Source of the DNA: a virus | Lineage: Duplodnaviria; Heunggongvirae; Uroviricota; Caudoviricetes | Reading direction: 5' to 3' (one strand) | IMG/VR virus record: IMGVR_UViG_2698536392_000024 | Coordinates: 1-15,087 of that record | Length of the DNA stretch: 15,087 bases | Shown: piece after piece, positions 11,140 through 12,149 of the stretch | Position numbering within the stretch: position 1 is the stretch's first letter | Layout of the letters: every line of letters starts with the position of its first letter | The notes under the pieces: model-generated | What the model was told of the DNA's origin: nothing | What the model saw: the letters and a program-made list of their open reading frames with translations, nothing else | Database searches by the model: none | Position numbers and translations under genes: made by a program

Positions 11140-11345
11140 GCGATAGCGTCCGTCCGGTACGATTTGCAGGTTGTCCAGTTCGGCAAGTTGTTGCCAAGCC
11201 AGACAGGAGGCACGTTATCGCCAGCCAGTCGCCCGTCCTGTTCCTGCCACTGCTTCGCATGTGCCCACACATCACTACCCGCAAAAATGATGACTTCCGT
11301 CATTTTGTCACGCGGCTGGTGTTTTAAATTTGGCGCTTTTTTCAT
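10956..11345 (-). CDS. N-terminal segment of the primase-helicase in a different frame; only the first ~50 codons look protein-like
   Basis: ATG at 11345 coupled to the upstream gene; MKKAPNLKHQPRDKMTEVIIFAGSDVWAHAKQWQEQDGRLAGDNVPPVWLG reads as protein, after which this frame turns W/R/C-rich while the helicase frame becomes protein-like from about 11200. Confidence 0.45.
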   Translation of the reverse strand: MKKAPNLKHQPRDKMTEVIIFAGSDVWAHAKQWQEQDGRLAGDNVPPVWLGNNLPNWTTCKSYRTDAIACVSIRRGYCVRGLLIPSGRNWQRQVSGMLIITLKECTARNGRTGANIWNVNGQSWRKRKR

Positions 11346-11641
11346 TTCTGCTCTCTCCACGCGGCAATCATGTTTTTCAGTTCCTGTAGTTTTTTATCCA
11401 CATCCACACGTGACACATGGTTATTTCTGGAAGTCGGGATTTCCCGCCGGAATCTGCTAATAAAGATCTCCACGTTCAGCGAACTATGAAATGAATAGCC
11501 ATAACGAATAAAATACACACGGTCAAACATCAGTTCTTTTACCGTTACTCTGTTACCGTTCTTATCCAGATAAATAGCGCCGGGGATAATTTTGGGGTGT
11601 GCATAACCGCTGGCAGTCAAGCCAGATAAATATGTTCTCAT
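11342..11641 (-). CDS. Hypothetical protein (99 aa)
   Basis: ATG at 11641; stop overlaps the start of the downstream primase N-terminal ORF (ATGA); product MRTYLSGLTASGYAHPKIIPGAIYLDKNGNRVTVKELMFDRVYFIRYGYSFHSSLNVEIFISRFRREIPTSRNNHVSRVDVDKKLQELKNMIAAWREQK; no family recognised. Confidence 0.6.
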   Translation of the reverse strand: MRTYLSGLTASGYAHPKIIPGAIYLDKNGNRVTVKELMFDRVYFIRYGYSFHSSLNVEIFISRFRREIPTSRNNHVSRVDVDKKLQELKNMIAAWREQK

Positions 11642-11647
11642 GATTAT

Positions 11648-11968
11648 TTATCCCCGATTTGAATCAGTATTCGCTTTCTTTATGGCATTTAATGCATCTG
11701 CGGCATTTTCAATGGTGCACCGTAACGAAATATCAAACTGCCCAAGCATTGCCAGTAACAAGCCAATATTCCCCATGTCAATGCGCATGGCCTTTTCGTC
11801 ATATTCCTCATTTTCTGACGCATACCACATCAGGTTACCAATTGAGGCAACAGCCATTGATATATTGTCAGTAGCCCCATCAGCAGCGGAATAAACCTTT
11901 TTAGCAATCTCATGCTCACAGTTAAAATGCGGATTAATCAGGTACTGGTAATTGGTCATGTCAGGCAT
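11648..11968 (-). CDS. Hypothetical protein (106 aa)
   Basis: ATG at 11968 preceded by AGGGGG RBS; begins MPDMTNYQYLINPHFNCEHEIAKKVYSAADGATDNISMAVASIGNLMWYASENEEYDEKAMRIDMGNIGLLLAMLGQFDISLRC; stop 6 nt before the next gene; no family recognised. Confidence 0.6.
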   Translation of the reverse strand: MPDMTNYQYLINPHFNCEHEIAKKVYSAADGATDNISMAVASIGNLMWYASENEEYDEKAMRIDMGNIGLLLAMLGQFDISLRCTIENAADALNAIKKANTDSNRG

Positions 11969-12149
11969 GGCACACCCCCTGACGAATACGGGCGGCGAAT
12001 ACAGCAACACAACCGGACGGGCAACGGCTACGCGCTTCGCGTTCCGTCCAGGCGGTTACGTGGATGATTTGAGATTCTGACGCGCCAAAGATGATAAAGC
12101 GCCAGATAAAGGCGGTTTGAGAATGTACGAGGGTAGGGGTAGTAGCCAT
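11961..12149 (-). CDS. Small protein (62 aa), first gene of the replication operon; possibly Icd-like cell-division-inhibitor family (tentative)
   Basis: ATG at 12149 with AAGAGG RBS 8 nt upstream; MATTPTLVHSQTAFIWRFIIFGASESQIIHVTAWTEREARSRCPSGCVAVFAARIRQGVCHA; its 3' end overlaps the next start (ATGCCTGA). Confidence 0.5.
   Translation of the reverse strand: MATTPTLVHSQTAFIWRFIIFGASESQIIHVTAWTEREARSRCPSGCVAVFAARIRQGVCHA

Follow-up and report, generated by a model that had tools for sequence, protein, structure and literature searches.

The stretch of viral DNA analysed here (the window, 15,087 nt) raises the question of what three small genes directly upstream of a primase gene are for, and how their expression is controlled. 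All three lie on the minus strand, start with ATG, and encode proteins of 62 aa (ORF1, 12149..11961), 106 aa (ORF2, 11968..11648) and 99 aa (ORF3, 11641..11342). They are tightly chained. ORF1 and ORF2 overlap by 8 nt (ATGCCTGA at 11968-11961), ORF2 and ORF3 are separated by a 6-nt gap (11647-11642), and ORF3 runs via an ATGA (11345-11342) into the N-terminal piece of the primase. A purine-rich stretch is present 5-9 nt before each start (GAAGAGG, AGGGGG and GGGGA for the three ORFs, GGAGAGAG for the primase). The preliminary description of this DNA had already reported the three ORFs, their junctions and plausible ribosome binding sites upstream of the primase, and the sequence, the ORF list and the PGAP annotation confirm this picture. 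It had also named conservation and synteny as a check. The order Icd-ORF2-DUF4222-primase indeed recurs in 57 of the 76 IMG/VR contigs that bear an ORF2 relative, and ORF2 has a dN/dS of 0.14-0.22 against 92-94% identical relatives (9-10 synonymous differences), values that, judged from these alignments, indicate purifying selection. As the genes are called by PGAP, as ORF1 and ORF3 exceed curated profile thresholds, and in view of the ORF2 dN/dS and the recurrent gene order, the ORFs are real genes and not chance reading frames.

The genes belong to a capsid-forming PICI (cf-PICI) satellite of 15 kb, which resides between clpS and cspD of a Shiga-toxin E. coli. The locus is 100% identical in an E. 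coli chromosome, where NCBI PGAP calls all three ORFs at the same coordinates. In this identical locus of about 15 kb, PGAP annotates int, an alpA-type HTH gene, primase, SSB, PerC, capsid, protease, portal, connectors, HNH and TerS/TerL; the AlpA protein of the window has a Pfam match of 57.2 bits. The size of about 15 kb, the genes from capsid to TerL and the absence of tail genes from the annotation are those of a cf-PICI. Known cf-PICIs (e.g. EcCIEDL933 and KpCIDSM30104) resemble the window element in gene content and size, but the window copy differs from them by two frameshifts. The preliminary description had compared the gene arrangement with that of P4, but an identity as a P4-like satellite had to be rejected. 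PGAP annotates no sid, delta or psu in the island, and their place is taken by a complete module for capsid formation and packaging, which includes capsid, portal and terminase genes of the element itself. The profile for alpha-type P4-family primases (TIGR01613) scores 94.5 bits, below its cut-off of 108.7, and the primase is a 605-aa protein of the D5_N/Pox_D5 type, whereas P4 alpha has 777 aa.

The primase-helicase gene (9532..11345, minus strand; D5_N / DUF5906 / Pox_D5 according to Pfam and PHROGs) is flagged as 'frameshifted' by PGAP. Alignment to the intact L010 primase attributes the split into 11345-10956 and 11139-9532 to a 4-bp deletion near 11195. TerL is frameshifted as well. The sequence is identical in two independent genomes, and the frameshifts are therefore unlikely to be sequencing errors. 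With primase and TerL both disrupted, the operon may be non-functional in this copy. One could go further and regard the three ORFs as remnants without function in an island that is decaying, for which the two frameshifts and their presence in both genomes might speak. However, none of the three ORFs is disrupted, purifying selection acts on their relatives in intact elements, and the RNA gate described below has been preserved together with its target sites, which makes this interpretation very improbable.

Directly upstream of the three genes lie an isrK and a C4 RNA, which are probably key to the control of the genes and had been overlooked in the preliminary description. The isrK / P4 seqA-like leader RNA (12313..12388, minus strand; Rfam RF01394, 69 bits, gathering score 50) contains an upstream C4 target pair, TTGGCGT (12364-12358) and TTAACGAAG (12349-12341), and an intrinsic terminator found by a terminator scan (12335-12317). 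A promoter-like site (12424-12395) is located just before it, and is one of 5 such sites found against 4.8 expected by chance. The C4 / P4 CI-type antisense immunity RNA (12204..12291, minus strand) matches Rfam RF01695 over its full length with 72.6 bits (gathering score 45). Its putative recognition elements are the loop of hairpin 2, TCTTCGTTA (12248-12240), and a single-stranded ACGCCAA (12232-12226). The downstream target pair (12160..12199, minus strand) is exactly complementary and consists of TTGGCGT (12199-12193) and TAACGAAGA (12168-12160). This last 9-mer overlaps the Shine-Dalgarno sequence (SD) GAAGAGG of the Icd-like gene, with its end 10 nt short of the ATG (12149). C4-complementary sites of 7 nt and 9 nt are thus present on both sides of C4, as two ordered pairs.

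The complementarity is maintained among related elements. Six of them have five distinct C4 loop sequences, each with its own matching target; the L011-type counterpart of the window type TCTTCGTTA, for example, is CCTTTGAC. In eight of the ten loop-target pairs, both sides have changed. The covariation score of 0.494 compares with 0.237 +/- 0.049 for shuffles, none of which (0/500) attains the observed value, and 86% of the cells in this test are paired, versus 30-53% in slid registers. The presence of C4 and isrK matches in Gram-negative PICIs has been noted before (PMC10111431). Nevertheless, the RNA gate is not universal for this gene slot, as there are loci without isrK and C4. The 12 species-representative loci scanned gave no Rfam match for either RNA. 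Our own C4 covariance model matched only P4, P1 and one Photorhabdus locus among species-representative loci, and none of 31 small-primase loci, though most of these bear an Icd-like domain. The notion that a C4 RNA precedes every Icd-like ORF was rejected on the basis of these searches.

The arrangement is familiar from the immI region of P1 and P7 (c4 RNA - icd - ant1/ant2), where a C4-family RNA also lies between two ordered target-site pairs. The annotated P1 layout is a1,b1-c4-a2,b2-icd-ant1, and the window matches it in the order and spacing of the sites. The second downstream site falls on the icd ribosome binding site in both cases, with positions of +4, +33 and +51 (ATG) in P1 and of +5, +36 and +55 (ATG) in the window. 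Common to both systems are also the coupling of the Icd-like ORF to the next gene (with an overlap of 8 nt in the window, ATGNNTGA, versus 4 nt in P1), and specificity loops that vary among related elements together with their targets. The differences concern what is being controlled. The gene after icd encodes Ant in P1, but a 106-aa helical protein without similarity to Ant in the window, where the operon moreover runs on into the primase. P1 is a plasmid prophage, whereas the window element is a satellite.

A similar order is found in the left operon of P4 (seqA - CI RNA - seqC - eta/Icd-like - epsilon - ORF151 - ORF106/cnr - alpha), which shares with the window the succession of immunity RNA, Icd-like ORF, small genes and primase, and also the AlpA/Vis-type gene and the integrase upstream. 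ORF106 is cnr, a regulator that binds alpha. The Icd-like ORF of P4 corresponds to residues 85-132 of the old 'cI' ORF (73.9 bits). In the P4 record, the start of epsilon overlaps its stop by 8 nt, and ORF151, ORF106 and alpha follow. The preliminary description had equated the location of the three genes with the slot of kil, eta, epsilon and orf151 in P4. This comparison is structurally apt for the CI RNA, the Icd-like ORF, epsilon, ORF151, ORF106 and alpha, but not for kil, which in the P4 record is not situated between cI and alpha.

The third related system is the isrK - orf45 - anrP locus of Gifsy-1 (PMC4825925). IsrK is a seqA homologue, and as in the window, the isrK RNA carries a terminator, a stable CI-like RNA comes after it, and a short leader ORF (orf45) is translationally coupled to the effector (anrP). 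In contrast to the window element, Gifsy-1 is a lambdoid prophage, its effector resembles an anti-repressor, and the short IsrK activates translation in trans (PMC4825925). The leader ORFs differ as well, the one in the window being Icd-like.

Taken together, the comparisons make it fairly probable that the three ORFs are the protein genes with which the early (replication) operon of a cf-PICI begins, and that this operon is gated by an antisense-RNA switch of the P1 immI/P4 CI type, with Icd as the gatekeeper, ORF2 as a cargo effector and ORF3 as a regulator. Judging from experiments on P1, P4 and Gifsy-1, processed C4 RNA would block Icd translation in the quiescent state, and loss of coupling together with polarity would then silence ORF2, ORF3 and the primase. 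Once the C4 RNA is titrated or outrun, Icd would be translated, ribosomes would re-initiate on ORF2, and the chain of translation would continue into the primase. For the most part, this is machinery that has been described (C4/CI immunity, Icd-like proteins, RgdR, cf-PICIs), the exception being the uncharacterised helical protein encoded by ORF2.

The assignment of ORF1 (11961..12149, minus strand; pI 9.3) is clear. Residues 14-57 match NCBIfam NF033153 with 59.6 bits (cut-off 25, E = 2.2e-16), and PGAP names the protein 'host cell division inhibitor Icd-like', so that the tentative Icd-like label of the preliminary description stands. The last codons of ORF1 contain both the SD (AGGGGG) and the ATG of ORF2. 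A cassette of the form GGAGGTG-N4-ATG-NN-TRA at the 3' end of Icd is present in 23 of 27 surveyed satellite loci, and the same SD-start-NN-stop type of junction links eta and epsilon in P4 (GTGCGTAA, compared with ATGCCTGA in the window). The cassette that closes Icd thereby places the start codon of the next gene inside the Icd stop region. In the surveyed satellites, the genes that follow it belong to at least 12 unrelated families. There are also long ORFs with a terminal Icd-like domain, for which no Pfam domain was found. The P1 record describes icd as 'inhibitor of cell division; apparently required for expression of ant'. By analogy, the Icd-like ORF may act as a gatekeeper leader, and possibly inhibit cell division as its P1 counterpart does.

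ORF2 (11648..11968, minus strand; pI 4.55) is an acidic protein that is predicted to fold as a helical hairpin. Homology searches place it in an unnamed family of Enterobacterales satellite proteins with lengths of about 95-106 aa (phrog_15327/phrog_6805), and its PHROGs matches are confined to families of unknown function. The NCBI name of the family, 'ubiquinol-cytochrome C reductase', is a mis-naming. Neither ORF2 nor 73 members of the family have a Pfam match; NCBIfam and PADLOC contain nothing for ORF2, and an anti-repressor domain was not detected in any of these three collections. For ORF2 and ORF3, a comparison with PDB sequences yielded nothing under E = 0.2. The AlphaFold2 model of ORF2 reached a pLDDT of 84.5 with a 73-sequence alignment, versus an unusable 48.5 with 7 close sequences. 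A fold search with the predicted structure gave no significant match, and since the hairpin is generic, it is uninformative on function. Similarity of ORF2 to P4 epsilon, ORF151 or ORF106 was rejected (hhalign probability <1%, 0.2% for epsilon), in agreement with the lack of a match to the epsilon profile PF25738 (Derepression). The remote homology and fold comparisons suggested in the preliminary description thus uncovered a wider, unnamed family, but neither a significant fold match nor homology to epsilon. The description had left two of the three genes unassigned. For ORF2, which has no Pfam match, this remains correct, whereas ORF3 can be assigned, and with the matches to NF033153 (ORF1) and DUF4222 (ORF3), two of the three genes now have a family.

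What may be said about the role of ORF2 derives from its position. Like the start of P4 epsilon, its start sits in the stop cassette of the Icd-like gene, which makes ORF2 a candidate for a swappable 'cargo' effector in the coupled slot that is taken by epsilon in P4 and by Ant in P1. The low GC content of ORF2 and ORF3 (42%, compared with 56% for Icd) fits with a swapped cassette. Most likely, ORF2 would be a small protein-binding inhibitor of a helper or host factor, and anti-repression of a helper prophage is the leading guess. Of the helper-interference and derepression functions that the preliminary description had proposed for the three genes, a positional argument is left for ORF2 alone. 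Elsewhere, genes of the ORF2 family are found in satellite contexts adjoining Icd and primase; in other satellites they are often second or third after Icd and not directly coupled to it. In Salmonella, the family adjoins a primase of a different type (Zn-ribbon/Toprim/DUF927), and in a lambdoid prophage of Yersinia, one member is the first gene of the early-left operon, with Icd and primase absent from its vicinity.

ORF3 (11342..11641, minus strand; pI 10.05) is a small basic protein of the DUF4222 / RgdR family (PF13973, 55.6 bits, cut-off 27). It is 31% identical to RgdR (ECs1581) across 99/99 aa (E = 3e-13). RgdR, encoded in O157 OI-51 (CP-933C / Sakai Sp7), likewise has 99 aa, a pI of about 10 and the DUF4222 core, and its island resembles the window element in size (15 kb) and in having SSB, a PerC/PchE regulator, capsid, portal and terminase genes. 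The identity is nevertheless modest, and residues 20-22, which are RGD in RgdR, are P20-G21-A22 in ORF3, which lacks the RGD tripeptide; most other DUF4222 members aligned have PGD or HGD. In Sp7, cargo genes of 61, 63 and 80 aa replace ORF2, and no C4 or isrK match reaches the gathering score. An assignment of P4 ORF151 to DUF4222 turned out to be unsupported, as the two share only an 'RFLREFT' motif (E = 0.03 with our own family HMM). RgdR is a regulator of EHEC that binds DNA non-specifically (PMC3378721), and by analogy ORF3 may be a small basic DNA-binding regulator that is produced in step with the primase.

The coupling to the primase could also mean that ORF2 and/or ORF3 are replication accessory factors, i.e. 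partners or regulators of the primase-helicase that act in origin binding, loading or copy-number control, in the manner of P4 Cnr on alpha. The start of the primase is overlapped by the end of ORF3, and in Sp7 by that of RgdR, and the same DUF4222/primase overlap is found in Raoultella, E. ruysiae, Kluyvera and Pectobacterium. The gene that abuts the primase is nearly always basic, with a pI of about 10 (family F2 in 13 loci, DUF4222 in 6), and the P4 gene directly before alpha is ORF106 (cnr). Non-specific DNA binding, as known for RgdR, would be compatible with such a role. Against it, primases that are 73-78% identical to the window type adjoin DUF4222, F2, F6 or none of these, and hence do not require a single partner. 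The ORF2 family, with its Salmonella members beside another type of primase and its prophage member without an adjacent one, does not follow the primase either. Moreover, loss of RgdR shifts host virulence phenotypes in the absence of satellite induction (PMC3378721). A dedicated replication role is thus unlikely.

The same phenotypes raise the possibility that ORF2 and ORF3 serve lysogenic conversion or host modulation as 'moron' genes (for virulence regulation, motility or anti-defence) and are not life-cycle genes. Expression of RgdR in EHEC changes LEE type III secretion and motility (PMC3378721), and effects of the family on transcription of LEE1, on type III secretion and motility, and on the colonisation of sheep are on record (PMC3378721, PMC10877973). 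Activation of LEE1 and type III secretion with repression of motility is a phenotype known for ECs1581 and C1493 only. In addition, a PerC/PchE-type regulator is encoded on the same island, as on OI-51, the slot varies in mosaic fashion among >20 families of small proteins, most of them acidic, and ORF2 and ORF3 are AT-rich compared with their neighbours. Yet the RGD motif, which matters for RgdR, is not shared by ORF3, and family members also occur in strains without LEE (PMC3378721). The genes have no match in PADLOC, and lie without a promoter of their own within an operon whose genes are translationally chained and which an immunity gate precedes. A pure moron function is therefore quite unlikely, and the early-operon interpretation is retained.

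If the early-operon interpretation is true, a regulator of the RgdR virulence family, a putative division inhibitor and an effector of unknown function are under the control of a satellite RNA immunity switch in Shiga-toxin E. coli, and helper-phage activity would be linked to host phenotypes. A bolder and doubtful extension holds that the cassette at the end of Icd is a universal 'socket' for unrelated effectors in P4, PICIs and cf-PICIs. On this view, proteins of the ORF2 family would make up a novel class of derepressors of helper prophages, or of other inhibitors of helper or host, functionally equivalent to epsilon and Ant but unrelated in sequence and fold, and the RgdR family would be a primase-coupled DNA-binding regulator, with its effect on EHEC virulence as a side effect of satellite activation. 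The combination of the cassette with swappable downstream genes offers a simple rule by which thousands of enterobacterial satellites can be searched for candidate helper-interference genes. Among the candidates linked to the cassette, the common and mis-named ORF2 family is a concrete target for testing.

The gene layout extends to an element that has been catalogued as a phage. When 50,697 phage records were searched by tblastn with the three proteins, the single match was that of Icd in a cf-PICI of Klebsiella. This element of 16.5 kb, which bears the phage name vB_KppS-Ant in its record, shares with the window the layout of Icd, small genes and primase.

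The three small ORFs upstream of the primase-helicase gene lie on the minus strand, and each begins with ATG: ORF1 (62 aa, 12149-11961), ORF2 (106 aa, 11968-11648) and ORF3 (99 aa, 11641-11342). ORF1 and ORF2 overlap by 8 nt (ATGCCTGA), ORF2 and ORF3 are separated by a 6-nt gap, and ORF3 runs into the next ORF via ATGA. The lengths and junctions reported in the preliminary description are exact in every coordinate, and the plausible ribosome-binding sites that it proposed correspond to a purine-rich stretch 5-9 nt upstream of all three starts. Four observations mark the ORFs as genes. 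PGAP (NCBI) calls these three CDS in E. coli 2013C-4830, where the sequence is 100% identical. The scores of ORF1 and ORF3 exceed the curated thresholds of their families. For ORF2, comparison to relatives with 92-94% DNA identity gives a dN/dS of 0.14-0.22, at 9-10 synonymous differences. Finally, the order Icd-ORF2-DUF4222-primase recurs in 57 of the 76 IMG/VR contigs that carry an ORF2 relative. The dN/dS values for Icd (0.15-1.3) and ORF3 (0.4-1.9) are based on too few differences to be informative. ORF1 and ORF3 belong to known families, and ORF2 to an uncharacterised one.

By gene content, the element is a capsid-forming PICI, not P4. It occupies 15 kb between clpS and cspD, as an island in which genes for an integrase, an AlpA-type regulator, the ORF1-3 region, a D5_N/Pox_D5 primase-helicase, an 81-aa protein and SSB are followed by those for a PerC-family regulator, major capsid, protease, portal, head closure and connector, HNH, TerS and TerL, all on the minus strand; sid, delta and psu are absent from the island gene content. 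The suggestion that the three ORFs fill the slot of P4 kil, eta, epsilon and orf151 is a good analogy, but not one between elements of the same kind. The isrK-C4-Icd-ORF2-DUF4222-primase-SSB block is 92-94% identical among E. coli satellites with differing integrases, integration sites and packaging modules. The primase-helicase gene (9532-11345) is split by a 4-bp deletion (GAGA) near 11195, as judged against an intact, 96%-identical relative, and PGAP flags frameshifts in both the primase and TerL (1323-2983) genes. Since two genomes share the identical sequence with both frameshifts, the satellite copy in the window is probably defective. Three related satellites (L008, 3463-3531; L016, 1343-1410; L017, 631-699) have the Rfam int-alpA RNA between their int and alpA genes; in the window, no match to it reached the gathering score.

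Directly 5' of ORF1, Rfam places two minus-strand RNAs that were absent from the preliminary description, isrK (12388-12313, 69 bits) and the antisense RNA C4 (12291-12204, 72.6 bits). The single-stranded parts of C4, namely the hairpin-2 loop TCTTCGTTA and ACGCCAA, have exact complements in two ordered site pairs on the minus strand. One pair is located within isrK (TTGGCGT, 12364-12358; TTAACGAAG, 12349-12341), the other between C4 and ORF1 (TTGGCGT, 12199-12193; TAACGAAGA, 12168-12160). The last of these sites overlaps the Shine-Dalgarno sequence GAAGAGG, and ends 10 nt 5' of the ORF1 ATG. An intrinsic terminator (12335-12317, minus strand) ends isrK, and a promoter-like site (12424-12395, minus strand) is found just 5' of it, in a region where such sites are no more numerous than expected by chance. 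Among six elements (four from E. coli, one from Salmonella and one from Klebsiella), the loop sequence varies, and both targets vary in step. The loop/target helix has two-sided changes in 8 of 10 pairs, in an alignment that covers the region from C4 to the beginning of Icd. The covariation score for both loop/target helices jointly is 0.494, compared to 0.237 ± 0.049 for shuffled data (reached by 0 of 500 shuffles), and 86% of cells are paired, a share that falls to 30-53% if the partner is shifted by 1-3 columns. A covarying RNA gate on the Icd ribosome-binding site of these satellites would, on this sequence evidence, go beyond the literature searched.

Parts of this arrangement have precedents. 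The P1 record has the same layout as the window (a1,b1 - c4 - a2,b2 - icd - ant1), with a2, b2 and the icd ATG at +4, +33 and +51 from the c4 end, compared to +5, +36 and +55 in the window. IsrK is a structural homologue of P4 seqA and is followed by a CI-like stable RNA, and in Gifsy-1 an anti-repressor is translationally coupled to a short leader ORF (PMC4825925). Matches to C4 and isrK in Gram-negative PICIs have been noted earlier (PMC10111431). The proposed RNA gate is not universal: no Rfam match to C4 or isrK was obtained in the 12 species-representative loci scanned, and our own C4 model found no match in any small-primase locus. The C4-less small-primase loci carry long ORFs (300 aa or more) with an Icd-like domain at the end and no Pfam match. 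In their N-terminal part, these long ORFs are homologous to residues 1-247 of a 323-aa ORF in the window (13210-12239, minus strand), which runs through isrK and C4; this region is 30-40% identical to the Icd-ended ORFs of other satellites and to ECs1576 of Sakai Sp7. Antisense to the 323-aa ORF, PGAP annotates a YlcI/YnfO-family gene (12693-12872, plus strand); either strand may be the coding one here, and the small gene is a candidate for a satellite repressor. The Serratia satellite L006 has a DUF3950 gene in the equivalent antisense position.

The Icd protein of P1 is a cell division inhibitor, an activity that ORF1 may share. The tentative assignment of ORF1 as Icd-like is upheld by NF033153 (59.6 bits, cut-off 25). 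The same domain (73.9 bits) makes up residues 85-132 of the old P4 'cI' ORF, directly after the CI RNA, and the stop of this ORF overlaps the epsilon start by 8 nt. In a survey of the regions 5' of related primases, with one genome per species, the primase type of about 580-605 aa was represented by 31 loci, 27 of them with an Icd-like ORF. This ORF ends in ATG-NN-stop in 23 of the 27, usually preceded by a GGAGG-type Shine-Dalgarno sequence (...GGAGGTG-N4-ATG-NN-TRA; AGGGGGTGTGCCATGCCTGA in the window, GGAGGTGTCCCGTGCGTAA in P4), and two further loci have an 11-nt variant. The gene that starts within this cassette comes from at least 12 unrelated families, so that the Icd-like ORF would combine two roles, as the site on which the RNA gate acts and as a conserved means of coupling to a following gene that varies. 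The succession of a conserved coupling cassette and apparently swappable genes again seems to go beyond the literature searched. At 6674-7832 of L002, a Klebsiella PICI lodged in the major-capsid gene of a prophage, the ORF that takes the place of Icd behind C4 shares 8 nt with the gene for a 292-aa Phage_integrase-domain protein, which overlaps it, so the gene in that position is not always small.

Two ORFs had been considered unassignable, and this remains apt for ORF2. It has no match in Pfam, NCBIfam or PADLOC, and in PHROGs it matches phrog_15327 and, weakly, phrog_6805, both without annotated function. Relatives at ≥65% identity form only 16 clusters, and those with a source name are from E. 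coli. An exhaustive profile search and a subsequent profile word search extended the family to 163 clusters of proteins of about 95-106 aa from Klebsiella, Serratia, Erwinia, Yersinia, Salmonella, Citrobacter and Raoultella, none with a Pfam domain. Dozens of members (P0037-P0135; Klebsiella, Serratia, Erwinia, Salmonella, E. coli) carry the name 'ubiquinol-cytochrome C reductase' in NCBI and UniRef without a matching domain, which looks like a propagated mis-annotation. ORF2 encodes an acidic protein (pI 4.55) and is AT-rich, with 42% GC versus 56% for Icd. The family occurs in 12 of the 27 surveyed Icd-bearing loci, in some as two copies, and direct coupling to Icd is not constant. Its contexts include 59 aa - ORF2 family - 72 aa - DUF4222 - primase in a Klebsiella PICI inside a prophage capsid gene, ORF2 family - 112 aa - primase in Serratia, C4 - 87 aa - ORF2 family - 130 aa - a differing primase type in Salmonella, and the head of the early-left operon in a Yersinia lambdoid prophage. 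No kinship to P4 epsilon, ORF151 or ORF106 was found by hhalign. We rank first the possibility that ORF2 acts as a small inhibitor on a protein of the helper or host, with a helper repressor as the most likely target. The ranking is drawn solely from position, as the slot coupled to the gated leader ORF is taken by the anti-repressor Ant in P1, and by the annotated helper derepression protein epsilon in P4. The more specific version, that ORF2 is an anti-repressor, we consider less likely than not.

ORF3, by contrast with its earlier description as unassignable, matches DUF4222 (55.6 bits), the family of RgdR (ECs1581) of E. coli O157 (PMC10877973); its product is basic (pI 10.05). One of the two known-family genes thus falls in a family with a published phenotype. 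RgdR activates LEE1 and type III secretion, represses motility and binds DNA without sequence specificity, and deletion of its island OI-51 reduces excretion from sheep (PMC3378721). In Sakai, ECs1581 resides in Sp7, a prophage-like element that matches a cf-PICI in its genes, as does the window; it follows an Icd-like gene and three small cargo genes, and abuts the primase gene with a 4-nt overlap. ORF3 and RgdR both have 99 aa and are 31% identical over the full length (E = 3e-13). The RGD motif of RgdR is PGA in ORF3, and PGD or HGD in most other aligned family members. The DUF4222 match, together with the similarity to RgdR and the shared position, places ORF3 in a known, partly characterised family, as judged from sequence. 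The tight coupling to the primase gene, and the P4 precedent of ORF106 directly 5' of alpha, would also suit a rival reading, in which the role of ORF3 is linked to replication. RgdR-family genes appear as the primase-coupled final gene of the chain, which likewise seems to go beyond the literature searched. The PerC-family regulator gene (8310-8582, minus strand) adjoins SSB, the position held by pchE in O157 OI-51/Sp7, so the island has two genes from families with reported effects on the expression of LEE (PerC/Pch and RgdR).

The gene abutting the primase start in the survey is DUF4222 in 6 loci, F2 (phrog_6610) in 13, and from other families elsewhere. F2 proteins are basic, 112-136 aa long, with a coiled coil and an HTH-like segment, and are unrelated to DUF4222. 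This uncharacterised family is the commonest primase neighbour in loci L014-L042, L091 and L093. In the same loci, more than 20 families of small genes contribute to a mosaic that fills the stretch from the Icd-like ORF to the primase; internal genes mostly encode acidic proteins (pI 4.4-5.8), and the primase-abutting gene nearly always a basic one (pI about 10). P4 ORF151 (7440-7895 of the P4 locus) contains 'PGEIY' and 'RFLREFT', which resemble both ends of the DUF4222 core; with E = 0.03 in our own family HMM, homology is unsupported. Xenorhabdus and Photorhabdus loci (L043-L090, L092) encode a related primase of about 813 aa, with many copies per genome (for example, five loci in X. ehlersii), and small genes of the ORF1-3 type were found in none of them. 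In one of the Photorhabdus loci (L058), a C4-like RNA (9210-9292) lies 3' of the primase gene.
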